From contig CAVVUR010000002.1 of the NCBI GenBank assembly GCA_963751515.1, positions 69,888 through 133,887 on the forward strand: DNA of 64,000 nucleotides, given 5' to 3'. The DNA comes from an uncultured delta proteobacterium. Lineage in GTDB: Bacteria > Desulfobacterota > WTBG01. Below the pieces are notes generated by a model. It was given only the letters and a program-made list of their open reading frames with translations. It did no database searches and was not told the DNA's origin. Below, piece after piece: positions 28,840 through 58,190 of this stretch (positions are counted from its first letter, which is position 1; each line of letters starts with the position of its first letter). Both the position numbers and the translations under genes were made by a program.

Positions 28840-31619
28840 ATGAGAAAGCTATCAATGATTTTGTCGGTTTTGTGTATTTCATTCCTGATTGCCTTTCCGG
28901 CCTTTCCGCTATCCTATCAGATTGATGTGGGACAGGATGGAATTGATACCGGCGGAGAGGTAGTCCTTTCTGGCCAAACAAACGTGAATATTGACCTTAT
29001 AGTCGATGACTATGACTGTCCGCCTGATGACAAACTCTTCGGCGTGCAGTCATATCTTTACATTGATGAGTCGATTGTCAAGGTAAACAGCTGCACACCG
29101 CGCACAGACCGCGGGTGTGATCTTTCGCTGAGCGGATGCACGCCTGCAGGAACCCAATGTGTACAGCGTGATCTGTAGTAACTTTCGTTTTATAACTGTT
29201 TCCCGGCGGCAGCCTGACTTTTGCCACTTTTAATGTTACGGTATTGGACAGGAACGACCGTAATGAGATTGGAGAATGACATTAGTGATCTTGATCCGGG
29301 TTATGGATCCTATGGTGATGGATATGTAGCCGACTGTACCCTGACAGGTCAAGTATTTCCTGCCGATGCAAGTCTCACGATTAATCCTTCACAAGCGGTC
29401 TGCGGCAACGGAAATCCCAGCCAGGAGAGCAGTGTGATGACGGCAATACCGTCGGTGGAGACTGCTGCAGCGCCACCTGTCAGTTCGAAGGGGCAGGCAA
29501 CCCATGCGGAGACGGCAATACCTGCAATGGCGCAGAAACCTGTAACGGTACCGGCATCTGCCAGGCCGGCGCGCCGATTAACTGCAATGACTCCAACGTC
29601 TGCACCACGGACACCTGTAATCCAGCATCCGGCTGTGTGAATACCCCGATCAGCTGCGATGACGCCAGTCTCTGCACCACGGATACTTGTAATCCAGCAT
29701 CCGGCTGCGTGAATACCCCGATCAGCTGCGATGACGCCAGTCTCTGCACCACGGACACCTGTAATCCAGCATCCGGCTGTGTGAATACCCCGATCAGCTG
29801 CGATGACGCCAGTCTCTGCACAACGGATACTTGTAATCCAGCATCCGGCTGTGTGAATACCGTCATCAGCTGCGATGACTCCAACCCCAACACCACGGAC
29901 ACTTGCGACCCGGCTACCGGCGAGTGCATCCACACTCCCCCGGGTTGCACAAATCCCTGTAGCGATAATAATGCATGTACAGAGAACGACGCGTGTGTCG
30001 GTGACGTATGCACAGGCGCTCCGGTCAATTGTGACGACGCCAGTCTCTGCACCACGGACACCTGTAATCCAGCATCCGGCTGTGTGAATACCCCGATCAG
30101 CTGCGATGACGCCAGTCTCTGCACCACGGACACCTGTAATCCAGCATCCGGCTGCGTGAATACCCCGATCAGCTGCGATGACGCCAGTCTCTGCACCACG
30201 GACACCTGTAATCCAGCATCCGGCTGTGTGAATACCCCGATCAGCTGCGATGACGCCAGTCTCTGCACCACGGATACTTGTAATCCAGCATCCGGCTGCG
30301 TGAATACCGTCATCAGCTGCGATGACTCCAACCCCAACACCACGGACACCTGCGACCCGGCTACCGGCGAGTGCATCCACACTCCTCCCCCGGGCTGTAC
30401 AGATCCCTGTAGTGATAATAATGCATGTACAGAGAACGACGTGTGTGTCGGTGACGTATGCACAGGCGCTCCGGTCAATTGTGACGACGCCAGTCTCTGC
30501 ACCACGGACACCTGTAATCCAGCATCCGGCTGTGTGAATACCCCGATCAGCTGCGATGACGCCAGTCTCTGCACCACGGACACCTGTAATCCAGCATCCG
30601 GCTGCGTGAATACCCCGATCAGCTGCGACGACGCCAATCCCTGCTCTACGGACACCTGCAACCCGGCTACCGGTTGCATGAATACACCAATCAATTGCGA
30701 CGACGGCGACCCCAATACCACGGATACCTGCGATCCGGCTACCGGTGAGTGCATCCACACCCCCCCGGGTTGCATAAATCCCTGTAGCGATAATAATGCG
30801 TGTACAGAGAACGACGTTTGTGTGGGTGACGTATGCACAGGAACTCCAGTCAATTGCAATGACTCCAACCTTTGCACCACGGATACATGCAACCCCGTAA
30901 CCGGCTGCGTGTATACCCCGATCAGTTGTGATGACGGAGTAAGCTGCACCGACGATACCTGCAACCCGGCTACCGGCTGTTCGAACACCCCCAATAACGC
31001 CAATTGCCAGGATGACGGTCTCTATTGCAACGGTGATGAGGTTTGCGACCCGATTAATGATTGTTTTTCAACCGGCAATCCCTGTCCGGATGGTTCCGTT
31101 TGCGATGAGATAAACGATGAATGCGATCCGGAAGCAGGCTTAACCGTTAAGGTTGATATCAAACCCGGGTCCTGTCCGAATCCGCTCAACCTAAAGAGTC
31201 GAGGCGTTGTATCGATTGCTATACTCGGGTCAATGGATTTTAAGGTGAATGATATCGATCCCATGACCGTTATGATAGGCAGAGCAAGCGTTCCAGGGAA
31301 GGTAGCTCCCATTCGCTACAGCTATGAAGATGTTGCCACGCCTTATGAAGGTGAACTCTGCGGATGTAATCGTTGCTCTGGCGATGGGTACAAGGACCTG
31401 GTTCTTAAATTCGAAATCGAGAAACTGGTTGATACCTTAATGCTTGGAGAGGCGGCCGGGCAAACAGTCCCGCTCATCATAACCGGCAATCTTAAGGAAA
31501 GAAAGGGTGGCACAGCATTCTCGGGCCAGGACTGCATGAAAATCCTTAAGAATACTTTAAAATTAAAAGATTTGATTGACCAGTTCAAGAAAGAGAAGGA
31601 TAACCGCGGCAAGAAGTAG
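28840..31619 (+). pseudogene. Secreted Cys-rich repeat protein (N-terminal beta-sandwich-like 'YxCxPxDxLFG' domain, CGNG..GEQCDDGN unit, ~15 CDDxxxCTxDxCNPxxGC repeats), at least 3 frameshifts near the 5' end
   Basis: ORFs 28840-29178, 29221-29640 and 29637-31619 align consecutively to the paralogues at 31911 and 43579. Signal peptide MRKLSMILSVLCISFLIAFPAF. Frameshifts at ~29150, ~29200-29250 and ~29415. Confidence 0.6.
29581..30960. repeat. Nested tandem repeats: 72-bp (24-aa) units organised in a 447-bp higher-order repeat
   Basis: The unit TGCGATGACGCCAGTCTCTGCACCACGGACACCTGTAATCCAGCATCCGGCTGTGTGAATACCCCGATCAGC recurs near-identically. Blocks start at 29581, 30028 and 30475 (period 447). 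Confidence 0.9.
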
Positions 31620-31910: not shown

Positions 31911-34900
31911 ATGAAAAAGCTATCATTGATTTTATCGGTTCTGTTAATCTCAACCCTCTTTGCCATTCCAGCCTTTCCGTTATCTTATGAAATTGATGTC
32001 GGCCAGAATGGGACCTTTGAAACAACTGGTGGCAATAATGATGGGACCATCGATCTTAATGTTAATGATTCTGTAACCATGGACATTTATGTGGACGGAT
32101 ATTCCTGTGCGCCAAATGATCAGCTGTTTGGAGTACAAGCATACATGTTTGTAGATGAATCACAGGTTTCGGTTAGCGGTTTCCCTTTTAGTGTCGCAAA
32201 TGGCGGGCCTTTTGATAATGGTTTGAGTGGATTTATACAGCAAGAAGCAAATGTGTATCTTTTGTCCGCCTCCAACTTTACTTTCGTAACTGTCACCGGT
32301 GGGAAACAAAAATTTGCCACGATGACTTTATCATGTATTTCAAGCGGTACGTTTACTCTGGCTATAGCAAATGACCTTACCTCTTATGGGTACTCATCGT
32401 ATTCCGACGGATTCGTTGCGGATTGTGGCTTAGTCTATTTGTTTCCCACTACTGCGTTATTTACAATTAATCAGAACCAGCCGACCGTCTTTCCGGAAGT
32501 CGCAACCACCTGTCCGGTAGTGGCAACGACCTGCCCGGCAGTAGCGACGACCTGCCCAGAAGCGGCAACCAGCTGTCCGGCAGATCCGACGAACTGTCCG
32601 ATTGCAGCCACCAGCTGTCCGGCAGATGCGACCTTCTGTCCTGAAATACCAACGGTATGTCCTGAAGGAGTGACTACCTGCCCAGAAATACCAACGACCT
32701 GTCCCACAGGTGCGACTTTCTGCCCAGAAAATCCAACCTTCTGCCCAGAAAATCCAACCTTCTGCCCTGAAATAGCAACCGTCTGTCCTGAATCAGTAAC
32801 CGCTTGTCCAATAGTGGCGACGGTTTGTCCTGAAGGCGTGACCCTCTGTCCTGCAAATCCAACCTTCTGCCCTGAAGGTGTAACTACCTGCCCCGAAATA
32901 CCAACTGCCTGTCCTGCAGTTGCAACCGTCTGTCCTGAATCAGTAACCAATTGTCCGGTGCAGGCAACCACTTGTCCGATAGAGGCAACTGTTTGTCCCG
33001 CAGGTGCGACCTTCTGTCCCGAAATACCAACTGTATGCCCCGAGGCGGCAACGATCTGCCCAGAAATATCAACGACCTGTCCCACAGGTGCGACTTTCTG
33101 CCCTGAAAATCCGACCTTCTGTCCTGAAATACCAACAACATGCCCTGAGACAGCAACTGTCTGTCCCGTAGAGGCAACGGTGTGTCCGGAGGAAGCAACG
33201 GTTTGTCCGGTAGAGGCAACAGTGTGCCCGGAGGAAGCAACTGTCTGTCCTATAGAGACAACAGTTTGTCCAGTAGGCGCGACCTTCTGCCCTGTAACTG
33301 AAACTGCCTGTCCTGAAACGGAAACGGTGTGCCCCGCCGCTGATTGTCCGTTAGCTTATAAGTTCGATTTTGATGGTGACAGGTACTGGGATACAGAATG
33401 GGAATTAACTCCTCCTGACCCACCTGCTGCCGGCGAGACAGTTCAAGTTGACATCTGGCTGAATGGATATGTGTGTCCGCCGAGTGACGATCTTTTTGGC
33501 ATACAGTTATACTTTTTGTATGATCCAAATGCCATGCAGGTGATCCAGGCCTATCCTAATAATAGCGATCACGGAGGACCTTTCGATCCGAGCCTAAGTG
33601 GATTTCTACCGCAGGCGCCCGGAATATATCAATTGATTGCCGCAAGTTTCGATTTTGTCTCAGTGATTGGTAACAGGATTTTAGTGGGAACGATTGAACT
33701 GCAGTGTACAGAGGCCGGCAGTAACATTGCGATTGTGGCTGCAGACGACCTGGGATTTGATCCATATAGAGATGGATTTGTTGCAGACTGCGAATCTGTT
33801 TCGCAATTTCCCATCGAAGCTATTGCAACAATATACCAACTGTGCAACTCAGATGCAGACTGCGATGACAGTAACCAGTGCACCACGGAATATTGCGACA
33901 CAGAAACAGACAGATGTGTTTATACTGTATTGGAAAATGACACACCCTGTGATGACGGTGTGTCCTGCAATGACCCTGATATTTGTGTTGACGGACAATG
34001 CGTGTTTCAGGGTGACCCCTGCTGCGAGATTGCCATCGACCCCAAAACTGCCGAAGCGTATTACGGCGAGACCATCCAATTTACGGTCTCTGAGAAAGGA
34101 GACTGCAACCCGACGCCTTGTTACACCTGGGAAGTGCTGGCCTCGGGCGGCACGGGGAACACCACAGAGAGATACAGCTGGGCGGCTGCGGCTGAGGCAG
34201 GCACAGGCAACACGGCGGGCGGTGGTGTGATAGACGAGAATGGCCTCTATACTGCCGGAGATTCTGTAGGTACCGACATCGTTAGGGTAACCGACAACTG
34301 CAGCACTGGCGCACCCTACGATGAGGCGGAAGTGACTGTTACCGGACCGCCTCCAACAACTACAACAACAAGCGTAAGACCGACAACCACCACTACGAGT
34401 ATAGAAACAGAATGTGATGAGGATATAGACTGTACTGATGAATTGTACTGCAACGGCGCCGAGACATGTGTAGGTGGAATTTGCCAGGACGGGACGCCGG
34501 TTGCCTGCACTGATGACGGACAATTCTGCAATGGCACGGAGAGCTGCAGCGAGCAGGCTGATGCGTGTGTCAGTTCCGGCAATCCCTGCGGGACCACACA
34601 ATCCTGCAATGAGACAACCGATGCATGCGAGCAGCTTGCCCGGATTGACGCGCTTTTGCCTCCTTCCTGGTATCAGTCAAGGTGGATACCCTTGATCAGG
34701 CCGCTGCGCATTGTCGGATCAGGCACCAGTTTTCAGGCTCGTGAATCAAAAGTTACCTTTGAGCCGAACATTGCCGTATTTCCGTTCTTTTCGAGAGTCG
34801 TGGATGAAGAAAATATCCTCATCTGGACCTATATCATGCCGCAGTGGCTGACCAGGCCGCTCGAGGGACCTGTACAGGTGACAGTCACTACCGGTTCTGA

Positions 34901-34973
34901 AGTAGTATCTGCCGACTGGGATATCAATTTGCTCCCCTTCCCACTTGATCAAGAAGGGGCGGATCTGGAGTAA
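31911..34973 (+). CDS. Secreted modular Cys-rich protein: two 'YxCxPxDxLFG' beta-sandwich-like domains, 40 PxxxTxC heptads, Cys-rich DG..C.. repeats, Ig-like region, Thr-rich linker
   Basis: 1020 aa; AAGGAGG RBS; signal peptide MKKLSLILSVLLISTLFAIPAF; paralogous to the N-termini of 28840 and 43579. Confidence 0.6.
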   Translation: MKKLSLILSVLLISTLFAIPAFPLSYEIDVGQNGTFETTGGNNDGTIDLNVNDSVTMDIYVDGYSCAPNDQLFGVQAYMFVDESQVSVSGFPFSVANGGPFDNGLSGFIQQEANVYLLSASNFTFVTVTGGKQKFATMTLSCISSGTFTLAIANDLTSYGYSSYSDGFVADCGLVYLFPTTALFTINQNQPTVFPEVATTCPVVATTCPAVATTCPEAATSCPADPTNCPIAATSCPADATFCPEIPTVCPEGVTTCPEIPTTCPTGATFCPENPTFCPENPTFCPEIATVCPESVTACPIVATVCPEGVTLCPANPTFCPEGVTTCPEIPTACPAVATVCPESVTNCPVQATTCPIEATVCPAGATFCPEIPTVCPEAATICPEISTTCPTGATFCPENPTFCPEIPTTCPETATVCPVEATVCPEEATVCPVEATVCPEEATVCPIETTVCPVGATFCPVTETACPETETVCPAADCPLAYKFDFDGDRYWDTEWELTPPDPPAAGETVQVDIWLNGYVCPPSDDLFGIQLYFLYDPNAMQVIQAYPNNSDHGGPFDPSLSGFLPQAPGIYQLIAASFDFVSVIGNRILVGTIELQCTEAGSNIAIVAADDLGFDPYRDGFVADCESVSQFPIEAIATIYQLCNSDADCDDSNQCTTEYCDTETDRCVYTVLENDTPCDDGVSCNDPDICVDGQCVFQGDPCCEIAIDPKTAEAYYGETIQFTVSEKGDCNPTPCYTWEVLASGGTGNTTERYSWAAAAEAGTGNTAGGGVIDENGLYTAGDSVGTDIVRVTDNCSTGAPYDEAEVTVTGPPPTTTTTSVRPTTTTTSIETECDEDIDCTDELYCNGAETCVGGICQDGTPVACTDDGQFCNGTESCSEQADACVSSGNPCGTTQSCNETTDACEQLARIDALLPPSWYQSRWIPLIRPLRIVGSGTSFQARESKVTFEPNIAVFPFFSRVVDEENILIWTYIMPQWLTRPLEGPVQVTVTTGSEVVSADWDINLLPFPLDQEGADLE
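32493..33332. repeat. 40 uninterrupted 21-bp (heptad) coding repeats, consensus P-[EV]-x-[AP]-T-x-C
   Basis: Counted in the translation from PEVATTC, PVVATTC ... to PETETVC; the register never slips. Confidence 0.9.
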
Positions 34974-40013: not shown

Positions 40014-42383
40014 ATGGAAGAACAGAAGCGCGCTGATGGCACGGCGAAGCATCAGCCAGGTACACGCCGGGTGATTTTTGTGGTGGAGGATGAGGCGGGT
40101 TTGTCGCACCTGCTCCAGAAAAACCTCCGCCGCGAAGGCTATCACACGGAAGGTGCGTCGAGCGGGGAGGCGGCCCTGGCCTTTGTTGCCGCCAACCGCA
40201 ACGCGCTAATGCTGCTGGACTACAGCCTGCCCGACATGTCGGGCAGGCGGGTGGTTGAAATCCTCACCGAGCGGCAGCTCAGCATACCCTTCATCATCAT
40301 GACCGGGCACGCTGACGTGAAAGTGGCCGTGGAAATGATGAAGCTCGGCGCGCGTGACTTCGTGGTGAAGGATGCGGAATTTCTCTCGGTATTGCCCGCC
40401 GTGGTCAAGCGGGTGGTGGAACAGCTGGAGGTAGCGGAGCGGCTGGCAGAGGTCGAATCGAAGCTGCTGAAGTCGGAGGAGCGCTATCACGACCTTATCG
40501 AGTTTGCCAACGCGGGAATTATCGTTGCCGAAGGGGATGTTATAACCGACATCAACAAAAGGGCCGAGGAGCTGTACGGCTATGAAAAGGACGAGCTGAT
40601 CGGCCAATCGCCCCGCCTGCTCACCCCCGAGCAGTACTGGGCGAAACATTACGAAGTGCTCGAAGAGGTGGCGACGTACGGCAGGTCAAAGACCTCAATG
40701 TTTGAGGAAGAAGGGATCAGGAAGGACGGCACGTTTTTTCCGCTCGAGATCTCCTTTTCGCTCACCGGAAAGAAAAACAAAACGGTCATCGGCGTAATCA
40801 GGGACCTTACCGAACGGAAGAAGCGGGAGAACGAAATCAGGGAGGCCAAGGAATTCCTGGAAAATCTCTTCCAAACCTCAACCGACGCGATCATGGTTAC
40901 CGACGCCGGGGGATACATCACCATGGTCAATGGCGCCATGGAAGGGATGGTGGGGTATGGGCGGGAGGAGCTGCTCGGAATGCATACCGGCCGGTTTACT
41001 CCCCGGGATGAGGGCGTCAAATCCCAGGCGCTTAAAATTATGGAACGGCTTTTCAACGAGGGGAAGGTCTACGGGCAGGAATCGCTCTGGCTGAAAAAAG
41101 ACGGGCAGCAGATATTTGTCGAGTTTAACCTCTCCCTTCTCAAAGAAAAAGACGGCACCATTGTGGGAGGGGTTAATTTCATCCGGGATGTCACGGAAAA
41201 AAAGAAGATGGAGCAGCAGCTTCTCCAGTCGGAAAAGCTTAAATCACTGGGCGAGCTGGCGGGAGGGGTCGCGCACGACTTCAATAATATTCTCGCCGCC
41301 ATTCTGGGACGGGTGCAGTTATTGCGAAAGCAGCTTGCCCCACCCATGGGGAAGACGGAAAAAAGGGGCTCGGCGATTGATCTGGAGAAAGGCCTGGAAA
41401 TTATTGAGCGGGCTTCACTGGATGGCGCGGAGACAGTCAGGCGAATCCAGGAGTTCTGCAGACGGAGAGGCGATCAAAAGGATTTTGTGCAGGTTGATCT
41501 CAATGAACTGATAGAAAACGCTCTGGAATTTACCAAGGTCAAATGGGCGGACGAGGTCCAGTCCAGGGGGATAAAAATCGAGATCAGCAAAGCGCTTTCC
41601 AGCCTTCCCCCCATCATGGGAAGCGCCTCGGAGCTCAGGGAGGTGTTTACCAATCTGATAAACAACGCCGTTGATGCCCTGCCCCGGGGCGGTGAAATAA
41701 GGGTCCAATCCTGCATGAATACTGAGTGGGCGGTAATCACCATTGAGGATACCGGGGGCGGTATTCCCCTCAGCATAAAAGACAGAATTTTTGACCCTTT
41801 CTTTACCACCAAAGGTCCTCAATCCACCGGGCTGGGATTGAGCGTGTCCTACGGAATCATCAACCGGCATCATGGCACCATTACCGCTGAAAGTATGGAG
41901 GGTAAAGGAACTGCCTTTACCCTCAAGCTGCCGCTCACCGGGACAGCAGATACAAAAGAAGATCACCGGGAAAAAGTTATACCCATGCAGGGCAAACATA
42001 AAAAAGCCAGGATTCTGGTGATCGATGATGAGGCGGATGTGCGCGAGCTGCTGCGTGACATTCTCAGCGATGCCGGCCATGATGTGGAAATGGCCCATAA
42101 TGGCTGCGAAGGCATAGAGATGTTTGAAAAGCAACCCTATGACCTTGTCCTTACCGACCTTGGTATGCCGGTGATGTCCGGCTGGGAGGTGGCGGGGAAG
42201 ATCAGGCAGATGAACAAATGCGTTCCCATTGCCCTCGTCACCGGGTGGAATGTGGTGCTGGATGATGCAGCCTTGCACAGCAGCGGCGTAAACCTTGTCG
42301 TTCACAAGCCGTTCCAGGTGGACCAGGTTCTTAATCTGGTCAAGGAAGGGGTAATTGTAAAGGACCGGCCCATGGCCGTCTGA
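40014..42383 (+). CDS. Hybrid sensor kinase: REC - 2-3 PAS - HisKA/HATPase - REC
   Basis: N-terminal receiver (VVEDE..LLDYSLPDMSG), PAS regions, GGVAHDFNN H-box, HATPase boxes and a C-terminal receiver (ILVIDDE..VLTDLGMPVMSG). Confidence 0.8.
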   Translation: MEEQKRADGTAKHQPGTRRVIFVVEDEAGLSHLLQKNLRREGYHTEGASSGEAALAFVAANRNALMLLDYSLPDMSGRRVVEILTERQLSIPFIIMTGHADVKVAVEMMKLGARDFVVKDAEFLSVLPAVVKRVVEQLEVAERLAEVESKLLKSEERYHDLIEFANAGIIVAEGDVITDINKRAEELYGYEKDELIGQSPRLLTPEQYWAKHYEVLEEVATYGRSKTSMFEEEGIRKDGTFFPLEISFSLTGKKNKTVIGVIRDLTERKKRENEIREAKEFLENLFQTSTDAIMVTDAGGYITMVNGAMEGMVGYGREELLGMHTGRFTPRDEGVKSQALKIMERLFNEGKVYGQESLWLKKDGQQIFVEFNLSLLKEKDGTIVGGVNFIRDVTEKKKMEQQLLQSEKLKSLGELAGGVAHDFNNILAAILGRVQLLRKQLAPPMGKTEKRGSAIDLEKGLEIIERASLDGAETVRRIQEFCRRRGDQKDFVQVDLNELIENALEFTKVKWADEVQSRGIKIEISKALSSLPPIMGSASELREVFTNLINNAVDALPRGGEIRVQSCMNTEWAVITIEDTGGGIPLSIKDRIFDPFFTTKGPQSTGLGLSVSYGIINRHHGTITAESMEGKGTAFTLKLPLTGTADTKEDHREKVIPMQGKHKKARILVIDDEADVRELLRDILSDAGHDVEMAHNGCEGIEMFEKQPYDLVLTDLGMPVMSGWEVAGKIRQMNKCVPIALVTGWNVVLDDAALHSSGVNLVVHKPFQVDQVLNLVKEGVIVKDRPMAV

Positions 42384-42443
42384 GCGCCGCCGGAAGAATA
42401 AGCCGCCGCATGTGAAGAGAATCAATTCATAGCTATGGCTGCT

Positions 42444-42477
42444 AAAAAAAGACAGGGTCACGTCCCTGTCTTTTTTT
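42444..42477. terminator. Bidirectional Rho-independent terminator between convergent genes
   Basis: A-run, stem AGACAGGG / CCCTGTCT with a 6-nt loop, then a T-run. Confidence 0.8.
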
Positions 42478-42510
42478 GGTAATGCTGCCGGTATGTCTAT
42501 AATGCAATGG

Positions 42511-43458
42511 TTAATAAATCTGGCCCGATAAGCAATAATCACAGCAGTTCATCTTATCCAGGGCCATGTCAATAATCACCAGAAGATCATATATGTCAAT
42601 GTTGCCGTTACGCTCACAGTTGGCAGCGCCGGGAGGATTTCCGCAGTAAGGCGGCATGCCGTTTGGAACGTCCCCATTATTACGCTGACATGCGGTAGGC
42701 GCCTGCAGACCCAGGACGATATCCACCATCTCCAAAATATCAAACAGATTGACGTCACCGTCGCCACAGGGAGCGCATCCCGGATCGAGACAGTCCTGCG
42801 GAAAGATATCGCCGCATACATTAAAGCACACCTCACCGGTATCCGTGCAGGCACACAGGGCTTCGTTGTACTGATCGGCTACCTGCACGTTCGTTGCCTT
42901 AAGGCATACGCAGTCAGGGCATGCTTCCGGATTTATCTGGTCATAAATCACCGTCGCTATCGGCCCCTCGCCCGGTGCGATCAGCCCGGCCGGCGAATAG
43001 AGCACCACCCTGCAGATGCCGTCAGGCTGTTCAGCTGCGATGCAGGTGAACCCCAAGGCCCGGTCCGGATCAGGGAAGCACCCGGTACAGGCAAGGTTGT
43101 CCTCCCCGTCCTGGCATTCGCCGATCTGAAAATCAAGCGCCTTTACCATGTGATCATTGTTGGTGAGACTTATGGCTGCCTCCAGGGAATCCGTATCAGG
43201 AGAAACAGTTGTTTCTCCTATGTCGAGGATGACCTTTCCGATCTGTATTGCAACCGCATCACGGCCACCATTCAATGGGTCAGTAGCGGTTACCGTACAT
43301 TCAACTACTTCTGCTATGTAGTTGCAGGTATCGCCAACGGTCAGCCGGGCACTGCAGTCACCGGTAGAAACGATAGTTGCCGCATCCGGCTTGGTGCACT
43401 TCACCGTCCATACAGGATAGGATATGCCCTCACAATCAGTACAAGTGTAGAAATCCAC
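42511..43458 (-). CDS. Cohesin-like + atypical dockerin-like Cys-rich protein segment; no signal peptide of its own, and probably the C-terminal part of one gene with 43579-44409
   Basis: Module SLEAAISLTNNDHMVKALDFQIGECQD...; C-terminus GDGDVNLFDILEMVDIVLG ... GDVPNGMPPYCG ... NGNIDIYDLLVIIDMAL. The same frame stays open upstream as far as the TGA at 43579-43581. Confidence 0.6.
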   Translation of the reverse strand: MDFYTCTDCEGISYPVWTVKCTKPDAATIVSTGDCSARLTVGDTCNYIAEVVECTVTATDPLNGGRDAVAIQIGKVILDIGETTVSPDTDSLEAAISLTNNDHMVKALDFQIGECQDGEDNLACTGCFPDPDRALGFTCIAAEQPDGICRVVLYSPAGLIAPGEGPIATVIYDQINPEACPDCVCLKATNVQVADQYNEALCACTDTGEVCFNVCGDIFPQDCLDPGCAPCGDGDVNLFDILEMVDIVLGLQAPTACQRNNGDVPNGMPPYCGNPPGAANCERNGNIDIYDLLVIIDMALDKMNCCDYCLSGQIY

Positions 43459-43546
43459 TATTTCACCGCAGGTCAGGGCGAGACCCCGTCTCCCCGGCCG
43501 GTTGTAAGGTGGGTCATCCAGGGGTGGTGGATCCTCGCAGCCATGT

Positions 43547-43565
43547 TCTACCCCTCCGAGGTAGA
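43547..43565 (-). promoter_or_regulatory. Hairpin 13 nt downstream of the in-frame UGA (SECIS-like candidate)
   Basis: Minus-strand RNA is UGA-N13-UCUACCUC-GGA-GGGGUAGA: an 8-bp stem (one G.U pair) with a G-rich triloop. Confidence 0.3.
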
Positions 43566-43578
43566 TCTCAATATCACA

Positions 43579-44409
43579 TCACGTGCATCCCTTAATTTCG
43601 ACCAGGGCACAGCACTGGGCCGGTTCGCCGGCATCACCCGTGTTAGCGGTATCGGTGGCACACACCGTGCAGGTCTCACCAATGAAGGTTTCCGGTACGC
43701 TCAAGAGACCCGTAACCGGATTGATGGTTGCTAAAGCACAATCTTCGGTCCAGACATAGGCCGGCGGGTTGTCACAGTAATTATTCGAGGGAGCGGCATT
43801 AAAATCCTGGGTGACCGTCGACCCGGTAACTGGCTGCACGACAGCCGTAGCCGGCGTTACCGCACATTCACAGGGCGGGATGAACTGGTTAACTGCCACC
43901 ACGGCATCGGTCGGGAAAATGCTGGCCAGATTGCAGTCCGCGATGAATCCGTCGTTGTAAGGACCGCCGATGTCGTTAGCCATAACGAGATTGAAATCCG
44001 TATCGTTATCACAGGTCAGTGTCGCGCTACCCATCTTGTACTTGTTGCCGGTAACCGTGATGAAGGTAAAGTTACTGCAGATCAGTGAAAGCACGCCCGG
44101 TTCCGGAGAGGTACATCCGCTCAGGCTGCCGTCGCACTGCGCTGCCGTGTTGGGAGAACAAGCGCTGATGGTAGCAGCTGTGTAGTCATAACTAATGTAA
44201 GGCGACACACCAAACAATTTATCATTAGGCGCACAGGAGTATGCTTCAATGTAAAAACCAAGGGTGACGGAGTCGCCAACCTCAATTGAAAGGGCGCTAT
44301 CACCGGTCCCATTTCCGTTCACGTCGACCGCATAGTTTACCGCCGATGCCGGACTGATCATGAGACCGACCATCAACAGCATACCGCAAAAAATTGAGAA
44401 CGGTTTCAT
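43579..44409 (-). CDS. Secreted Cys-rich protein, N-terminal 'YxCxPxDxLFG' domain + Ig-like region; ends at a UGA that is in frame with the next ORF
   Basis: Signal peptide MKPFSIFCGMLLMVGLMISPASA; paralogous to the N-termini of 28840 and 31911. Confidence 0.6.
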   Translation of the reverse strand: MKPFSIFCGMLLMVGLMISPASAVNYAVDVNGNGTGDSALSIEVGDSVTLGFYIEAYSCAPNDKLFGVSPYISYDYTAATISACSPNTAAQCDGSLSGCTSPEPGVLSLICSNFTFITVTGNKYKMGSATLTCDNDTDFNLVMANDIGGPYNDGFIADCNLASIFPTDAVVAVNQFIPPCECAVTPATAVVQPVTGSTVTQDFNAAPSNNYCDNPPAYVWTEDCALATINPVTGLLSVPETFIGETCTVCATDTANTGDAGEPAQCCALVEIKGCT

Positions 44410-44452
44410 TGCTTCAACTCATTACATAGCGGATAATATTTAATCGTATTGT

Positions 44453-44480
44453 ATTATATCAATATAATCAATAAAGTCAA
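44453..44480 (-). promoter_or_regulatory. Candidate sigma70-type promoter for the 44409 gene
   Basis: On the minus strand: TTGACT, 16-nt spacer, TATAAT, ~40 nt upstream of the ATG in an AT-rich gap. Confidence 0.5.
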
Positions 44481-44528
44481 TATATTTTCTTGCCGTTGTG
44501 CGAGGGCACATTTTTTTGGGAACCGTAC

Positions 44529-46201
44529 CTAATGCACCACCGGCAGCAGCACGTGCGAGGGATAGGTGCTGTTATAGTAGATGGTGTTGGCGGCGGTTAT
44601 CATGTTCTCCTTGTCAAAGGTATCCCCCCCGGTGTTGGGATTGACGTCAAACCGGGGGTTGTTGCTGCTGGATACGGCAAGGCGGAGGCGGTGGCCGGTG
44701 TTGACGATGATGCTGGTGGCCCAGAGATCAATCTCAAACCGGTACACGGTCCCCGGCGTCATAAGCTCGGGGGTGGTGAAGGTGTTGCGATAGCGGGCTC
44801 GAATAATGCCGTCGGCTATGAGCATGGATTGACCTTCAGGGTAGACGTCAGTGAGCTTGGCGGTAAAATCGGTGTCAAGGGCATCGGATGAAGCATATAA
44901 AATAACTTTCAGGTCACCGGTCACTTCCAGCGGCGCCTCAAGGATCGCGGTTGAAAAGACCACCACATCCGGGCGGCCTTCAAGATCCGACTGGTCATAA
45001 GGTCCTGCTGCTATGGTGAGATCGAGATTTGTGCCGCCCCTCGAAGGAACGGGATCTTCGGGGTCGAAGCGATAGGAGGAAGAAAAAGCTCCCCCGGCGG
45101 CCGCATCGGGCGAGAGGACACCCTCCGGGTGCAGGTAGTAGGCGGTCGGGGGCACCTCAAACGGCGGCCAGGTTGGCGCGTACCTCCACTCGTGGCCCGG
45201 CGCCTCATAATCCCGGGCATCTCCCATGACGTAGTAGTAAACGGGATCCGTTTCCATAATGCCTGTATCTTCACCTTTGAGCCAGTAGTCAATCCAACTT
45301 TCGAACAACTCATTCTGATCGAGGACCGAGCTCGGCGGGAAGGTAATCTCTCCCTGCTCCCTTGAACTGTATCCTGAATGGGTCCAGGGGCCGATGACAA
45401 GCCTCTGGTTTCCTCGTGCGCCCCGGCCCCCTCATCTTGACGGGTGAGAAATCCATTGATGGCCCCCTTCAGTGCCATGTCGTACCAGCCTCCCACGTGC
45501 AGCGCCGGCGCCCTGACCACGTTTGCCCTGATTTCAACGTTTCCCAAATCCCAGAAGGAGTCGTAGGAGGGGTGCATTTTATAGGTTTCGAGAAAAAAGC
45601 TTGCCCCCTGCCGGTCCAACCAGCCGGTAACCTGGGCCTGGTTAAAGGCGCCGCCCTGAAAAACAATCTGCGAGTAATTGTCTGTGGGCGTAAAGCGGAT
45701 GAACTGACAGGCAAGGCCGGGCGGCGCTGTTCCCGCCATCAGATGCTGGGTAATGCCTTCAGCGGACTGACCGGCGGTTCCTATCTTCCCGTTGCACCAG
45801 GTCTGTCTGCGTATCCAGGCCACCGTATCGTATCCGTCCTGGTTGTCTCCCCAGCCATCGTCCAGGAAAGGCCGGTACTCACCCTCGGAGTCAAAGCGTC
45901 CCCGCACATCCTGTATGACAATGGCGTACTCGTCAGCGAACCTGAACAGCGACTCGCTTTCCTCCCTGCCGTAGGGTGTCCTGATCAGGAGCACCGGCCA
46001 GGCGCCCCTGCCGTTGGGCGGCAGGTATACATCAGTGGCCAGCTTGACCTTGTCTCTCATGGGAACCATGTAGGTTTCGCTGACCGAACAGCCGGACAGC
46101 ACAAGGCCGAGCGCAAGAACCAGCAGGGGCACAAAGCAGTTCAGAAACGTCCATGTTTTTGGCAGATAGGAAGATCCGAATGTGTCAGTAGTGTTTCGCA
46201 T
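44529..46201 (-). pseudogene. CocE/NonD-family (X-Pro dipeptidyl-peptidase S15-like) hydrolase, lipoprotein signal, one frameshift (~45420)
   Basis: LVLSGC lipobox and LLIRTPYGRE. The two ORFs 45011-46201 and 44529-45308 join as ...RGNQRLVIGPWTHSG... in the second frame. Confidence 0.65.
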
Positions 46202-47503: not shown

Positions 47504-47530
47504 ATGTGGATCGGATGGTAGCGTGTTATC

Positions 47531-48951
<1,421 letters not shown>

Positions 48952-51126: not shown

Positions 51127-51417
51127 CAGGCTGTTGAAAAACACCCATCTGATTCGTGGCTCAAAGGGGAGGGGCTTTTGACGCCACAACAATGTGTCTT
51201 TACGCTTACGGCACGACCCGGTGCCTTCGACGCGAACCGAAAGCAGGCAGCTTTGCAGAGGCTTCGATAGAGGCTGTTGCCATGCGGGTCTGTCTGACAA
51301 AGTTAGAAAGTCGCTGCCGTTCTACCGGTTCCGAATAGTTTTGTTGTGGCTCAAAAGCCCCTTCCCTTTGAGCCTTTGAACGGCCTGAGGAAAACTACTT
51401 TTTCAACAACCTGCTAG
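51123..51417 (+). repeat. Nested palindromic intergenic repeat, copy 4 (core 51156-51374; shell variant A)
   Basis: Near-identical to copy 1. The left TAG (51124-51126) is the stop codon of the preceding ORF. Confidence 0.9.
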
Positions 51418-51426
51418 AGCGAGGAC

Positions 51427-51798
51427 ATGGCCATGGCTGAAGGATACACGCCGCTGATCATTTTTCTTTTCCTGTCGGTTCTCTTCGCGGGGGCTGTCAT
51501 CGCTCTGTCGGCCCTTTTCGGACGGAAGGCAGCGACCCGGGAAAAGCTTATGCCCTACGAATGCGGCCTTGACCCGGTGGGCAATGCGCGAACGAGGTTC
51601 TCGGTCAAGTTTTTCATCATTGCCATGCTGTTTATCGTCTTCGACGTGGAGGCGATGTTTTTATACCCCTGGGCGATTGTCTTCCGGCAGTTTAACCAGT
51701 TTAAAGGCTTTGTCTTTTTAGAAATGGCTGTTTTTATCGGTATCCTGCTGGTCGGCTTTATATATGTGTGGAAGAAGGGGGCTCTGGAATGGGAGTAG
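51427..51798 (+). CDS. nuoA: NADH-quinone oxidoreductase subunit A
   Basis: 123 aa, 3 TM helices, YECG motif, FDVE. Confidence 0.85.
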
Positions 51799-52274
51799 AA
51801 AGCTATCTTGGTGATACCATTATCACCACCACCCTTGAGAAAGTAGTCAACTGGGCCCGAAAATCATCGCTCTGGCCCGCGACCTTCGGGCTGGCCTGCT
51901 GCGCCCTCGAAATGATGGCCACCGCCGCCGCCCGCTACGATATTGCCCGCTTTGGCGCCGAGGTCTTCAGGGCCTCGCCGCGGCAGGCAGACCTGATGAT
52001 TGTTGCCGGCACCCTGACCAGAAAAATGGCGCCCGTGGCCAGGAGGATCTACAATCAGATGCCCAATCCCAAGTGGGTCATTGCCATGGGCGCCTGCGCA
52101 TGCTCGGGCGGAATCTTTGACACCTACGCCGTGGTGCAGGGGGTGGATGAGATTATCCCCGTGGATGTGTATATGCCCGGATGCCCGCCCCGGCCGGAAG
52201 CATTGCTCTACGCCATCATGCAGCTTCAGAAAAAGATAGAAAAGGAACACTTAAGGGAAAAGAACCATGGCTAG
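51789..52274 (+). CDS. nuoB: NADH-quinone oxidoreductase subunit B
   Basis: GLACCA..., GACA.SGG and PGCPP cluster-N2 motifs. Start ATG 51789 overlaps the nuoA stop. Confidence 0.85.
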
Positions 52275-52728
52275 TATGGAAGAGTTGGTCGGGAAAATAA
52301 AGGAAACCTTTCCCCAGGCCATCGAAGAAACGGCAGTCTATAAGGATGAGCATACCATACGGGTCAAGCTGTCATACCTGCTCGAGGTCTCGCGCTTCCT
52401 CAAGGAAGACACGTCATGCGGCTTTGACTTCCTCTCCGACCTCTGCGGCGTCGACTACATGGGCCGGGTGCCCCGCTTTGAGGTGGTCTATCACCTGTAT
52501 TCCCTGAAACACCGGCACCGGCTGCGCATGAAAATCTCCCCCTCGGACGAGGACCTTACCGTGCCTTCCGTGGTTTCTGTCTGGAAGACGGCGGACTGGC
52601 ACGAGCGGGAGTGCTACGATCTTTTCGGCATAACCTTCAGGGATCATCCTGATTTGAGGAGAATTCTCACTCCTGACGGGTTTACAGGGTATCCGCTCAG
52701 AAAAGATTTTCCGCTGCGGGGAAGATAA
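52267..52728 (+). CDS. nuoC: NADH-quinone oxidoreductase subunit C
   Basis: 153 aa, 30-kDa subunit motifs (W.ERE..D.FGI.F..HPD). Confidence 0.85.
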
Positions 52729-52737
52729 ACGGGGGCA

Positions 52738-53934
52738 TTGCATAGCATGGAAACGGCGTCTGACATCAGGACAGAGTTGGTAACCCTGAACATGGGGCCC
52801 CAGCACCCAAGCACCCACGGGGTGCTGCGGGTGGTGCTGGAGCTCGACGGCGAGGTGGTCACCAAGGCAACCCCGGTGCTGGGGTATCTGCACCGGGGCA
52901 TCGAGAAGCTGGCCGAGCATAAAACCTACCACCAGTTCATTACCCTCACCGACCGGCTGGATTATACCTCGCCCTTTATCAACAACCTTGCCTACGTGCT
53001 TACGGTTGAGAAGCTTCTCGACCTGGAGGTTCCGCTCCGGGCCCAGTATATCAGGGTGCTGCTCGCAGAGCTTACCAGGATCCAGAGCCACCTCATCTGG
53101 CTGGGAACCCATGCCCTGGACATCGGGGCCATGTCGCCGCTGCTCTACTGCTTCCGCGAGCGGGAAGAGACCCTGGACATGTTTGAAATGGTGGGCGGGG
53201 CCCGGATGAACCAGAGCTACTTTCGCATCGGGGGCCTTGCCGCCGACCTGCCCGACGGGTTTGAAGAAAAGGTGAAGGCGTTCTGTGAGGTGCTGCCCTC
53301 GCGGATTGACGGGTACGAGCGCCTGCTGACGGAAAATAAGATCTGGCTCAACCGGACAAAGGGCGTGGGCGTCATTTCAGCGGAAGAGGGGATCGCCCTG
53401 GGACTTTCCGGTCCCTGCCTGAGGGGCTGCGGGGTACAGTGGGACCTGCGCAAGGCCAACCCCTATTCGTCCTACGATCACTTTGATTTCGAGATACCCA
53501 CCGGCCGGTACGGGGATTCGTATGACCGCTACCTGGTGCGGCTGGAGGAGATGCGCCAGAGCAACCGGATCATCAGGCAGGCCCTGGAGCGGCTGCCCTC
53601 GGGCCCGTTCAACGCCGTGAGCCCCAAGGTGGTGCCTCCGCCGAAGGAACTGGTGCAGGAAAATATTGAGTCATTGATCATCCACTTCCACCTCATGACC
53701 GAAGGTTTTAATGTGCCCAAAGGTGAGGCGTATTGCAGCGTGGAGTCGTCAAAAGGCGAGCTGGGCTTTTATATTGTGAGCGATGGGGGCAGCAAGCCCT
53801 ACCGGGTGAAGATCCGCACCCCCTCGTTTGTGAACATGGAATCGTTCTCCACCATGGCGCAGGGGCGTATGATGGCGGACATCGTTGCCATTATCGGCAG
53901 CATTGACATCTGCCTGGGAGAGGTGGATCGCTAG
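52738..53934 (+). CDS. nuoD: NADH-quinone oxidoreductase subunit D
   Basis: NMGPQHPSTHGVLR and the 49-kDa subunit pattern. Confidence 0.9.
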   Translation: MHSMETASDIRTELVTLNMGPQHPSTHGVLRVVLELDGEVVTKATPVLGYLHRGIEKLAEHKTYHQFITLTDRLDYTSPFINNLAYVLTVEKLLDLEVPLRAQYIRVLLAELTRIQSHLIWLGTHALDIGAMSPLLYCFREREETLDMFEMVGGARMNQSYFRIGGLAADLPDGFEEKVKAFCEVLPSRIDGYERLLTENKIWLNRTKGVGVISAEEGIALGLSGPCLRGCGVQWDLRKANPYSSYDHFDFEIPTGRYGDSYDRYLVRLEEMRQSNRIIRQALERLPSGPFNAVSPKVVPPPKELVQENIESLIIHFHLMTEGFNVPKGEAYCSVESSKGELGFYIVSDGGSKPYRVKIRTPSFVNMESFSTMAQGRMMADIVAIIGSIDICLGEVDR

Positions 53935-53963
53935 GCAGTGTTGAACAGGGAGACAACAAGCGC

Positions 53964-54338
53964 ATGACCTTTAGAGAGTTGGCGAATATTTTAGGAGCTG
54001 AGGTTCTGGTCGGGGACGAACGCATGGATAGTACGATTAGGGACGCCTTTGCCGCCGACCTCTTAAGCGATGTTCTGGCCTTTGCCAAGGAGGGTACGCT
54101 CCTGATAACCGGGATCACCAATCCGCAGGTGGTGCGCACCGCTGAAATGCTCGAGCTGCTGGGCATTGTATTCGTGAGGGGCAAAAGGCCTGACGAGGAA
54201 GCAGTCAAGCTCGCCCGGGCGAAAAAGATACCGCTTTTGTGCACCCGTTACATCATGTTTGAAACCTGCGGCAGGCTGTTCTCAAGCGGTATGGTCGGTT
54301 GTATTGAAAGAGTGGAAAATGCAGGAAAAACAGGCTGA
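53964..54338 (+). CDS. DRTGG-domain protein
   Basis: 124 aa: DLLSDVL...LITG..N.Q.VRTA. Paralogue at 56103. Confidence 0.55.
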   Translation: MTFRELANILGAEVLVGDERMDSTIRDAFAADLLSDVLAFAKEGTLLITGITNPQVVRTAEMLELLGIVFVRGKRPDEEAVKLARAKKIPLLCTRYIMFETCGRLFSSGMVGCIERVENAGKTG

Positions 54339-54762
54339 GCCCCTGTTGGAGCAGGAATTCATTGTGCAGGGTGGTGATTTCATCCATGCCGGCGAGGTTT
54401 CAAGCAGCATTAAGGCCATCTTAAAAGAGATCGGCATAAGCCACGACGTCATCAGGCGGGCTGCCATTGCCACCTACGAAGCGGAGATGAACGTCGTGTG
54501 CTACGCGCGGCGGGCTGCCTTTCATCTGGCCATTACCCCTGACCGGCTGACGGTTATTGCCGAGGACGAAGGGCAGGGCATTGCCGATCTCGAGCGGGCC
54601 ATGCAGGAAGGGTTTTCAACCTCCTCCAGGGAAATCAAGGAAATGGGTTTCGGGGCGGGCATGGGGCTGCCCAACATCAAGAAGAACACCGATGAATTGC
54701 GCATCAGTTCGGTGGTGGGGGAAGGCACGCGTCTGGAAATGGTTATCTTTACCCGGAAATAA
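54319..54762 (+). CDS. Anti-sigma-factor-like Ser-kinase / HATPase_c-fold ATP-binding protein
   Basis: Start at internal ATG 54319; EDEGQGI...GFGAGMGL G-box-like motifs. Confidence 0.5.
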   Translation: MQEKQAEPLLEQEFIVQGGDFIHAGEVSSSIKAILKEIGISHDVIRRAAIATYEAEMNVVCYARRAAFHLAITPDRLTVIAEDEGQGIADLERAMQEGFSTSSREIKEMGFGAGMGLPNIKKNTDELRISSVVGEGTRLEMVIFTRK

Positions 54763-54771
54763 AGACGATCC

Positions 54772-56085
54772 ATGAGCAAATATTATCACTCCATTGAAGT
54801 GGAAACCGATAAATGCACCGGCTGCATGCAGTGCATGCGGGCATGCCCCACCGAGGCCATGCGCATCCGTGAGGGCAAGGCCCTCATCCTGGAGGACCGG
54901 TGCATTGACTGCGGTGACTGCATCCGGGTGTGTCCCGCCCGGGCGGTCCGATCCATGACCGGGTCGTTCGAAGACTTGACCAGGTTTAAATACACCATCG
55001 CCATACCTTCTCCCGTCCTTTACTCCCAGTACGGCATGGGGATTACCCCCAACCATATTTTAAACGGTCTTAAGGGCCTGGGTTTTAACGAGGCCTATGA
55101 TGTGGGCAAGGCCTGTGAAATTTATTCGGCGGTGCTCAAAGAACACCTCCACAGCTATTCTCAAAACAAGCCCTACATCTCAACCGTCTGCCTGGCCGTT
55201 GTCAGGCTCATCCAGATAAACTTTCCCGATCTCATGGGAAATCTGCTTTCCATGGAGGCGCCCAGCGCCATCGCCGGAGCTTACAAGATGGCCAAGGCCA
55301 AAATACTGGGAATAAGCCCCCAGGATGTCGGGGCCATTTTTATCACCCCCTGCCCCGCCAAGATGATCGCCGTAAATCACCCCATCTTCAAATCGGATCC
55401 GACCCTGGACGGGGCCATTGCCATTTCGGATATCTACGGGGTTCTCTTCAGCGCCATCCGCAAGATCAAGGCGCTTGAGCCGCTTCACGACTCGGGCGGC
55501 TTCGGTGTGGCTACGGGGATCCCCGGCGCGTGCATTGCCGGCCTCGAAATCGAGAATGCCATAGCCGTGGACGGGGTTAAAAATGTAATCAACATACTGG
55601 AGGACGTGGAGCGCGGCAAAATCACCAATGTAAACTATCTGGAATTATGGGCCTGCCCGGGCGGGTGCGTGGGGGGCCCCCTTGCGGTGGATAATCGCTT
55701 TCTGGCCAAGATCAAGGCCATGAAACTGATTCAGCAGATGGGGAGGAATTTAAACATTAACCTCGCTGAAGTGGAGCGGATGCGCGCCCACCTGTCATGC
55801 GATGTTGAGCTGTCCACCTATCCCGTGCAGCCGCTGAGCACGGATGCCAGGGAGGCGATCAGGAAAGTAAAGGAGCGGGAATCCATTTTAGAGAGCCTCC
55901 CGCGCATTAATTGCGGGGCATGCGGCGCCCCAAACTGCAAATCCTTTGCCGAGGATGTCGTTCAGGGAAGGGGTGAGGTCACTGATTGCGTGTTCAAGCT
56001 CAAGGAGGCGACCATGGAATCGCTCCGCAGGGGACTTGAAATAGCTCAGAAAGCCCCTCTTTCGATTCGCAAGCGGGGAGCATAA
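54772..56085 (+). CDS. [FeFe]-hydrogenase-like protein (putative sensory, HydS/Hfs-type): 2x[4Fe-4S] + H-cluster-domain-like + C-terminal Cys cluster
   Basis: CTGCMQCMRACP and CIDCGDCIRVCP; H-domain-like TPCPAK and WACPGGCVGGP; C-terminal CGACGAPNC....C. Confidence 0.6.
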   Translation: MSKYYHSIEVETDKCTGCMQCMRACPTEAMRIREGKALILEDRCIDCGDCIRVCPARAVRSMTGSFEDLTRFKYTIAIPSPVLYSQYGMGITPNHILNGLKGLGFNEAYDVGKACEIYSAVLKEHLHSYSQNKPYISTVCLAVVRLIQINFPDLMGNLLSMEAPSAIAGAYKMAKAKILGISPQDVGAIFITPCPAKMIAVNHPIFKSDPTLDGAIAISDIYGVLFSAIRKIKALEPLHDSGGFGVATGIPGACIAGLEIENAIAVDGVKNVINILEDVERGKITNVNYLELWACPGGCVGGPLAVDNRFLAKIKAMKLIQQMGRNLNINLAEVERMRAHLSCDVELSTYPVQPLSTDAREAIRKVKERESILESLPRINCGACGAPNCKSFAEDVVQGRGEVTDCVFKLKEATMESLRRGLEIAQKAPLSIRKRGA

Positions 56086-56102
56086 GCAGCAGGGGAGCAG
56101 GC

Positions 56103-56444
56103 ATGAAGCTGAAGGAAATCATTGACCGGTTGGAGCTGAAGGTGGCGGCCGGGGAGAACCTGGACCGGGAAGTGGCCGGGGGGTACGCGAGCGACCTCTT
56201 AAGCGATGTCATGGCCAACAGCAGGGAGGGGGATATCTGGGTGACCCTGCAGGCACATCCCAATATCATCGCCGTTGCCTCCCTCAAGGGCATGGCCGGC
56301 GTGGTTATTGTGCAGGGCAGAACCCCCGAGGCACAAACGGTGGACAAGGCCCGGCAGGAAGACATTCCCCTTATGGTCACCGGGCTGCAGACCTTTGAGC
56401 TCGTCGGCAGGTTATACGGCCTCGGCATTTCCGGAATGAGGTGA
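56103..56444 (+). CDS. DRTGG-domain protein
   Basis: 113 aa; DLLSDVMA...VTLQAHPN; paralogue of 53964. Confidence 0.55.
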   Translation: MKLKEIIDRLELKVAAGENLDREVAGGYASDLLSDVMANSREGDIWVTLQAHPNIIAVASLKGMAGVVIVQGRTPEAQTVDKARQEDIPLMVTGLQTFELVGRLYGLGISGMR

Positions 56445-57193
56445 TGCTCAGAGCATATCGGGCTGATTTGCATATCCATTCCATCCTTTCTCCCTGCACC
56501 GAACCTGCCGAGATGTCGCCCCGCGCCATTGTAAAGCGGGCAGGGGATGCGGGTTTGCATCTGATAGCCGTGTGCGATCATAACTCCTGTGAGAATCTTC
56601 CCGCGCTTCAAAAGGCGGCAGAGGCGACCAGTCTGGCGGTGCTGGCAGGTATGGAGATAACCACTCGGGAAGAAATTCATATTCTGGGCCTTTTTGATAC
56701 GGAGGCGCATGCCTTTGAGGTGCAGAAGGTTGTGTACGAGCATCTCTCCGGCGAAAACGATGAAAAAGCCTTCGGCTGCCAGGTGGTGGTCAACGAGCAT
56801 GAGGAGGTAGTTTCCTTTAATAAAAAATTGCTGATCGGGGCAACCACGCTTTCCCTGGAAGCGGTGGTTGAACTCATTCATTCCCGCGGCGGCATAGCCA
56901 TTGCTTCGCACATTGATCGCGAGGCATACAGCATCATAAGCCAGCTCGGCTTTGTTCCGCCGGGGCTGGCGCTGGATGCGCTGGAGGTTTCGCCGGCCAC
57001 GGGCCTGGATGAGGCGCGCCGGCGTTTCCCCGGGCTTGATCACCTTCCCTTCATCAGCTCATCGGACGCCCACTCCCTTGACGGGATCGGGAGTAGTTCA
57101 ACCGTCTTTCTGATGGAAGCTGCAGGCATCGACGAAGTGAAGCTGGCGCTTGCCGGAAGGGAGGGCAGAAAGGTGCTCGGGGGACAGGGATAG
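56441..57193 (+). CDS. PHP-domain (polymerase/histidinol-phosphatase-like) phosphoesterase
   Basis: DLHIHS.LSPC...AVCDHN...ASHIDR...SDAH metal-binding His/Asp pattern. Confidence 0.6.
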   Translation: MMLRAYRADLHIHSILSPCTEPAEMSPRAIVKRAGDAGLHLIAVCDHNSCENLPALQKAAEATSLAVLAGMEITTREEIHILGLFDTEAHAFEVQKVVYEHLSGENDEKAFGCQVVVNEHEEVVSFNKKLLIGATTLSLEAVVELIHSRGGIAIASHIDREAYSIISQLGFVPPGLALDALEVSPATGLDEARRRFPGLDHLPFISSSDAHSLDGIGSSSTVFLMEAAGIDEVKLALAGREGRKVLGGQG

Positions 57194-57194
57194 C

Positions 57195-57740: not shown

Positions 57741-57849
57741 ACAATGTTATATGGTGAGTGAGGGCCGTTTGCGCCACAACACCCATAATTTGATAATTGG
57801 CCTGCGGGGTCAGAATAATTTTGATTACATCCCATGGTAGCGGGGACAC

Positions 57850-58070: not shown

Positions 58071-58190
58071 TTATGAAAACCTGGTATAGGGGAAGGTGGC
58101 TTACGGCATGGCCCGATACTTACAAATGCGTTCCTTTACCTTTAAGGTTAACGCCAAGCGGATTGCAGCAGAGTGGAGGTATTCTAAGTA

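Follow-up and report, generated by a model that had tools for sequence, protein, structure and literature searches.

The DNA analyzed here is a stretch of 64,000 nucleotides from an uncultured delta proteobacterium, referred to at its full length as the window. At positions 42511–44409, on the minus strand, it carries a gene for a secreted, cysteine-rich protein that is divided into two open reading frames (ORFs) by a single in-frame UGA codon at 43579–43581. In a preliminary description of the locus the UGA was put forward as a candidate for selenocysteine insertion or for read-through. Our analysis indicates that it is most likely a plain stop that interrupts one gene, and not a recoding signal. 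The chance that the stop originated as an error in the assembly consensus is about even, and with confidence barely beyond the halfway mark we infer an error and not a genuine mutation of very recent date. An error-prone assembly, probably of long reads, would have yielded a false TGA in the consensus, through either a miscalled base or two nearby compensating insertions or deletions (indels). Taken at face value, the sequence would give a product of only 276 residues that lacks the C-terminal module. The organism itself probably has an intact gene, whose codon at the TGA position is a normal sense codon.

The interrupted gene and its protein family

Reading of the minus strand from 42400 to 44600 bears out the preliminary description of one frame, one UGA and two ORFs: 43579–44409 and 42511–43458 lie in the same frame, and the only separator is the TGA at 43579–43581. 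From the ATG at 44409 a 276-codon ORF runs to the residues ...VEIKGCT and ends at the TGA (43581–43579). Past it the frame stays open for 355 codons (CDIEIYLGGVEHGCEDPPPLDDPPYNRPGRRGLALTCGEIVDF..., CDIEIYLGG...) up to a TAA at 42513–42511, and the residues around UGA-277 are VEIK/GCT[U/X]CDIEIYLGGVEHGCEDPPPLDDPPYNR. The N-terminus (MKPFSIFCGMLLMVGLMISPASA, with VNY after the cut) reads as a signal peptide of the Sec secretion type with an AxA cleavage site. As was also described, the second ORF has no signal peptide and begins mid-domain; its listed start is an internal GTG, the codon for Val in the conserved stretch ...LTCGEIVDF.... The second half (42514–43578) lacks a start codon, a ribosome site and a signal peptide belonging to it alone, and no start codon precedes the conserved PGRRGLALTC motif. 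The features of the gene are as follows.

44341..44409, minus strand: start codon and signal peptide MKPFSIFCGMLLMVGLMISPASA, from translation; homologues have N-termini of like kind
43582..44409, minus strand: N-terminal 276 codons, comprising the signal peptide, a domain of ~150 amino acids (aa) and a second beta-rich segment (PPCEC...CTVCATDTANT)
43579..43581, minus strand: in-frame TGA, interpreted as a premature stop that arose by consensus error or by a recent nonsense mutation
43547..43565, minus strand: 8-bp hairpin UCUACCUC-GGA-GGGGUAGA in the codons for I-Y-L-G-G-V-E, probably fortuitous
42514..43578, minus strand: conserved C-terminal module of 355 codons, from homologue alignment and a predicted model
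about 42823–43266, minus strand: cohesin-like domain, from a fold search with the predicted model
about 42514–42771, minus strand: two dockerin-like segments, from the motifs GDGDVNLFDILE and NGNIDIYDLLV
42511..42513, minus strand: true stop TAA; homologues terminate at the matching ...G.IY/F residue

Twenty-six homologues were retrieved with the fused sequence as query. Several uninterrupted proteins of 617–649 aa match it over 100% of its length (P0001, with 69% identity, P0002, P0003, P0010, P0012, P0015, P0017 and P0018) and come from uncultured Thermodesulfobacteriota, and DNA-level scans of a one-genome-per-species collection and of the JGI metagenome collections gave 39 further loci. 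The uninterrupted homologues span the junction and show the locus to be one gene, not two; judged from these alignments, the joining of the two ORFs is far beyond chance. The intact gene is predicted to encode a secreted, Cys-rich protein of ~632 aa with variable N-terminal domains and a conserved module of ~355 aa. The signal peptide and the full-length homologues agree with the preliminary description of a secreted, Cys-rich protein in two halves of one gene.

In the homologue alignment the N-terminal half is variable and the ~355-aa C-terminal module is strongly conserved. The module starts at a near-invariant Cys right after the window UGA (xC..EIYLGG or EIALGR, then PGRRGLALTC). In the window this Cys is followed in order by EIYLGG, PGRRGLALTC, an Ig-like part, the cohesin-like domain, the two dockerin-like segments and the tail NCCDYCLSGQIY, for which the family consensus is NCCDYCxxGxIY. 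Downstream of the stop the window retains 61 of the 62 family-invariant columns and 90 of the 97 columns that are at least 90% conserved. With no decay downstream, the stop would be either artefactual or very recent. The family occurs in multiple copies in metagenome-assembled genomes (MAGs) of uncultured Thermodesulfobacteriota or 'delta proteobacterium', with at least six copies in one MAG, and the N-terminal parts are swapped among copies (Thr/Ser-rich linkers, Cys-rich Dicty_CTDC-type repeats or the N-domain of the window type). Paralogous copies of this N-domain are found in the window itself at 31956–32531, 33357–33842 and 28840–29385.

Pfam gave no significant family for the fused protein and left its C-terminal part unmatched; the sole Dockerin_1 match is weak (E = 0.54) and falls on N-terminal residues 24–38. 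A profile search of PDB sequences gave no matches, and one homologue, P0014, has a precomputed PF00404 match. The C-terminal module was modeled by AlphaFold with a predicted local distance difference test score of 77 and a central beta-sandwich. The best PDB fold matches of this model are cohesins (6kgf, 6kgd, 2jh2, 2vo8, 2xdh, 4ums and 5nrm), with E values of 4e-8 to 4e-6 and template modeling (TM) scores on the target of 0.62–0.74. Superposition with 6kgf, 2jh2 and 2xdh gave TM scores of ~0.7 on the target and root-mean-square deviations of 3.3–3.9 A over ~140–149 columns. The predicted model thus supports a cohesin-like nine-stranded beta-sandwich (jelly-roll) fold for the central part of the module, in keeping with the cohesin-like module of the preliminary description. 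The protein was on the whole rightly described there. Motifs of the F-hand type in the tail are candidate dockerin segments: GDGDVNLFDILE and NGNIDIYDLLV are each followed by a helix, and Pfam and PDB sequence searches do not recognize this tail. The family can be described as multi-copy, Cys-rich, cohesin/dockerin-like secreted proteins without a Pfam model, a modest and ordinary lead for annotation.

Other members of the family are interrupted as well. P0030, from the orthologue cluster of P0001, is 180 aa long on a 92-kb contig, starts within the PGRRG region and ends in out-of-frame sequence, so the orthologue in another MAG would also be frameshift-broken. Locus L021 has a TGA (about 38–50) in a Thr-rich linker, 12 codons ahead of the conserved Cys and at the contig edge, and in L006 (about 3500–3720) a second family copy is preceded by a stop-filled stretch. 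Neither of these two further interrupted copies has its interruption at the position of the window TGA.

The residue at the UGA and the downstream hairpin

The residue aligned to the TGA was tallied over 33 non-redundant homologous DNA loci, and codons were compared with those of the three closest orthologues with DNA (L011–L013). Cys or TGA is found at the aligned codon in none of the 33 loci; the residues there are L (8), A, E, S and T (4 each), V and I (3 each), Q (2) and P (1). In L011, L012 and L013 a Thr codon, ACC, stands opposite the TGA and the conserved TGC or TGT comes directly after it, so that orthologue DNA reads ...ACC TGC... against ACG TGA TGT in the window. Whether orthologues have Cys or selenocysteine at this position had been proposed as a check, and the answer is neither. 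P0009 is the only homologue with a Cys nearby, and the alignment there is ambiguous. The DNA-level scans of the genome and metagenome collections yielded no homologue with a TGA at the window position. The likeness of the local C-T-U-C to redox motifs, which had been pointed out, has no counterpart in the relatives, which read A-I-T-C, G-E-T-C or G-A-T-C. The TGA site is the variable final linker residue before the conserved C-terminal module and not a catalytic position. The UGA does lie inside an ORF with both flanks belonging to one family, as is expected of a selenoprotein gene. However, a published selenoprotein screen retains an ORF with a TGA only where two or more homologues have Cys and the TGA is paired with Cys in more than 50% of the homologues (PMC1088965); Cys homologues exist for nearly every selenoprotein, and a bacterial selenocysteine insertion sequence (bSECIS) and homologues that themselves carry a TGA are used as additional filters (PMC13188914). 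The proposal of selenocysteine is not borne out, as both the aligned Cys or selenocysteine and the TGA-bearing homologues are absent.

The hairpin with an 8-bp stem and a GGA loop was confirmed where it had been described. It starts 13 nt past the UGA, runs from 43565 to 43547 and has 8 pairs (one of them G-U) and an energy of −9.0 kcal/mol. Its compatibility with SECIS elements stands in part. The hairpin falls within the published bacterial constraints (PMC13188914) in a simplified form (3-nt GGA loop, 8-bp stem, 21-nt spacing, −9.0 kcal/mol), but 4–11% of the window TGAs do likewise and the structure is not conserved. The simplified bSECIS test was passed by 7.2% of 2270 window TGA triplets (3.9% at −9.0 kcal/mol or better) and by none of 16 genuine terminal TGAs. 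In the 50 nt that follow them, 11% of window TGAs have a perfect stem of 8 bp or more, and 56% of 2271 TGA triplets have a fold there that is as stable or more so; the 101-nt fold around the UGA has a z score of −0.27. The hairpin is not formed in the DNA of L011–L013 (ATT TAC CTG GGT GGA GCC GAA). Rfam, searched around the UGA at E ≤ 10, gave no SECIS-type match, only snoRNA-like noise (E > 0.2), and at gathering thresholds only tRNA-Pro in the window. Within the 64 kb no tRNA-Sec was found (the single tRNA is that for Pro), nor were sel genes among the ORFs scanned. The hairpin is weak positive evidence for selenocysteine, with a likelihood ratio of perhaps 10, and it is outweighed because the tests for Cys or selenocysteine and for TGA homologues fail.

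As a caution for error-prone assemblies, an in-frame TGA with a small G-loop hairpin turns up by chance so frequently (4–11% of TGAs here) that a call of selenocysteine needs an alignment with Cys or selenocysteine as well as TGA-bearing homologues. An FDH-alpha/NuoG-like protein of 869 aa is encoded at 61371–63980 (plus strand). It has Ser at the selenocysteine/Cys site of FdhF (NNIDHAGGYSYSGL), and its gene adjoins those of NuoF-like and NuoE-like proteins, which makes a non-catalytic subunit of the NuoG type probable. With Ser at that site and this NuoG likeness, it says nothing on the selenocysteine trait.

Origin of the stop

Three of the five consecutive genes at 42.5–48.9 kb are broken. 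The next gene upstream of ours, of the S15-family X-Pro dipeptidyl peptidase/CocE-NonD type (44529–46201, minus strand), is frame-split at a G-run near 45430–45450, and its halves overlap (Peptidase_S15 in ORF 45011–46201, PepX_C in ORF 44529–45308). A gene similar to that of the NADPH-dependent glutamate synthase small subunit (gltA/gltD-like; 47520–48951, minus strand) has two frame changes, near 48105 and 47660, each of which could come from one additional G after CC (CCC-G-CAG, ACC-G-ACC). Most other conserved genes of the window match their profiles end to end (subunits of CODH/ACS, MTHFR, cytochromes, RNase R, NuoA-D/F/G-like), which makes the damage local, and with three damaged genes of five a locally poor consensus is the simplest account. 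Further away on the plus strand, a paralogue at 28840–31619 has the N-domain of the target gene and nine Cys repeats of the Dicty_CTDC type. Over ~800 nt it is interrupted by three in-frame stops (TAG, TAA) as well as by at least three frameshifts, and it is either a copy in decay or a repeat region that was poorly polished. Exact-protein look-ups with the N-terminal ORF, the NuoF-like protein and RNase R found no second copy of the window sequence.

The preliminary description had argued that errors in this sequence are indels, so that a miscalled base would be less likely. The first part is true of the visible errors; the second does not follow, since long-read assemblies with indels contain about as many substitutions (PMC12007338, Table 1). 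The pseudogenization of genes by frameshifts and premature stops is a recognized artefact of such assemblies (PMC12007338). The TGA overlaps a palindrome, CACGTG, and lies within a 5-nt tandem repeat, GTGAT-GTGAT (43570–43587, minus strand), a context that could favor systematic miscalling or slippage; over 10 CACGTG sites in the window no clear signal of systematic miscalling was seen. A 3-nt insertion, a 5-nt GTGAT-GTGAT slip and a +1/−1 pair of indels are each compatible with the sequence. It is speculation that such a pair within 10 nt (GG[A]TGCACGTGA[-]TGT) would restore G-A-R-D/E-C and thereby match the G-A of the orthologues.

Several points weigh against an error as the origin of the stop, or against a plain stop at all. 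The hairpin lies within the SECIS constraints, and the genuine terminal TGAs do not share this property. Elsewhere in the window every error that can be seen is an indel, with no demonstrable substitution error. The TGA site is not a homopolymer, which is the classic place for a long-read error. The consensus alone cannot demonstrate an error, and a true recent nonsense mutation predicts the identical sequence. Under this last reading the TGA is really present in the organism, only the 276-aa secreted N-terminal fragment is made, and this member of a multi-copy family is a truncated variant or a pseudogene of recent origin. It is a serious contender, to which we give roughly one chance in three. 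Loss of one copy would be tolerable in a family that is so modular and so numerous, other copies look degraded (28840–31619, the second copy in L006 and the orthologue fragment P0030), and the lack of a homopolymer fits as well. The mutation would, however, need to be very recent with 355 downstream codons that have not decayed, and the adjoining, unrelated S15 peptidase and gltA-like genes are also broken, for which a poor consensus is more economical than three independent pseudogenes. At the 55–69% protein identity to the orthologues, synonymous sites are saturated and a recent event would leave no trace in them.

The remaining explanations have a far smaller share. Decoding of UGA-277 as selenocysteine through SelB and tRNA-Sec, with the hairpin at 43547–43565 as the guide and a vicinal selenocysteine-Cys pair at the start of the module as the result, has in its favor the hairpin, the intact downstream frame and a host that looks like an anaerobe of the Desulfobacterota type, a group that often uses selenocysteine. 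We consider it very improbable: no pair with Cys or selenocysteine occurs in the 33 loci, where the published screen asks for more than half (PMC1088965) and Cys homologues are near-universal (PMC13188914); the scans of two collections gave no TGA homologue; the site is a variable linker boundary rather than an active site; the hairpin is unconserved; Rfam, tRNA and sel gene searches of the window were negative; and the protein is of an extracellular structural type and not an oxidoreductase. Equally improbable is a form of the idea in which selenocysteine evolved newly in this lineage at a non-Cys position, with a minimal 8-bp GGA-loop SECIS, before the invariant Cys of a cohesin/dockerin-like module. 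If true, this would be a secreted, non-enzymatic, extracellular structural selenoprotein without a Cys-containing counterpart, which would be unusual. Programmed or leaky read-through of the UGA by a near-cognate tRNA, with the short secreted form as the main product and full-length protein as a lesser one, is hardly more credible. Low-level read-through occurs at every UGA, the stop is placed exactly at a domain boundary so that both products could fold, and the frame downstream is intact. However, every homologue has a sense codon at the site, neither the stop nor its context is conserved in the 33 loci, which gives no sign of selection for a stop, and no downstream structure is conserved. 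The base after the stop is U, which in E. coli makes a context for efficient and not leaky termination. Programmed read-through, the other proposal in the preliminary description, is therefore not borne out.

Least probable of all are two genuine separate genes, or a genome in which UGA is a sense codon (codes 4 or 25). Same-frame neighbors split by one stop do occur by chance elsewhere in the window, and a stand-alone gene with cohesin-like and dockerin-like parts and its own signal peptide is present at 19881–20702. Two independent genes are excluded by homologues that are all continuous across the junction and by a second half without a start codon or signal peptide. The codes with UGA as sense are excluded as TGA is an ordinary terminator in the window and stands at profile ends: it ends 18 of 55 long ORFs, among them the gene of the ACS beta-subunit, where the Pfam match reaches the last residue.

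Surroundings of the gene and comparison with known systems

Two further elements flank the gene.

44453..44480, minus strand: promoter-like site TTGACT-16-TATAAT, by consensus match only (11/12)
42444..42477: terminator hairpin AAAAAAAGACAGGG-ACGTGA-CCCTGTCTTTTTTT, read directly from the sequence

The promoter-like site has a TG before its second hexamer and lies ~45 nt 5' of the ATG. The terminator, a 14-bp hairpin with A/T flanks, is 3' of the TAA and is shared with the convergent kinase gene 40014–42383; an automated scan omitted it, probably because its A/T runs pair into the stem. Composition near the locus shows nothing unusual.

The window encodes several secreted proteins of the cohesin/dockerin type as a small set (15800–20702 and 31911–34973). 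The gene at 19881–20702 (minus strand) is small and intact, and its product has a cohesin-like domain, besides a signal peptide and a dockerin-like tail; the related gene at 15800–19930 (minus strand) encodes a protein of 1376 aa in which four cohesin-like repeats are joined to a terminal Pfam Dockerin_1 domain; and 31911–34973 contains two copies of the target-type N-domain. The flanks (1–15750 and 51400–64000) encode CODH/ACS subunits, a corrinoid protein methyltransferase, MTHFR and its C-terminal-domain partner, a multihaem cytochrome c3-type protein with a 4Fe-4S and NrfD-like membrane complex, Nuo A-D, and a NuoE/F/G-like module with an [FeFe]-hydrogenase-like protein. Such a set of genes suggests a Desulfobacterota-type anaerobe with the Wood-Ljungdahl pathway.

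The locus can be compared with three kinds of known systems. With bacterial selenoprotein genes it shares an in-frame UGA within a conserved ORF and a hairpin 13 nt downstream with an apical loop starting in G and with permitted spacing and energy. It differs from them in that the site falls in a variable linker, the relatives have no Cys, selenocysteine or TGA there, the hairpin is unconserved and the context is not that of a redox enzyme. The gene-fragmenting errors of long-read assemblies are resembled by a lone stop in a well-conserved gene with neighbors frameshifted at G-runs, although here the event is an in-frame stop rather than a frameshift and the site is not a homopolymer. Finally, the protein is similar to the non-cellulosomal cohesin and dockerin modules of bacteria and archaea: the predicted fold of its central C-module matches cohesins, its tail carries two putative segments of the dockerin F-hand type, and another gene of the window has a Pfam Dockerin_1 match. 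Unlike the known modules, its C-terminal part is without a sequence-level match in Pfam or PDB, its F-hand-like segments are set apart by a long Cys-containing insert, and the protein is very rich in Cys, with a conserved CCDYC motif near its C-terminal end.

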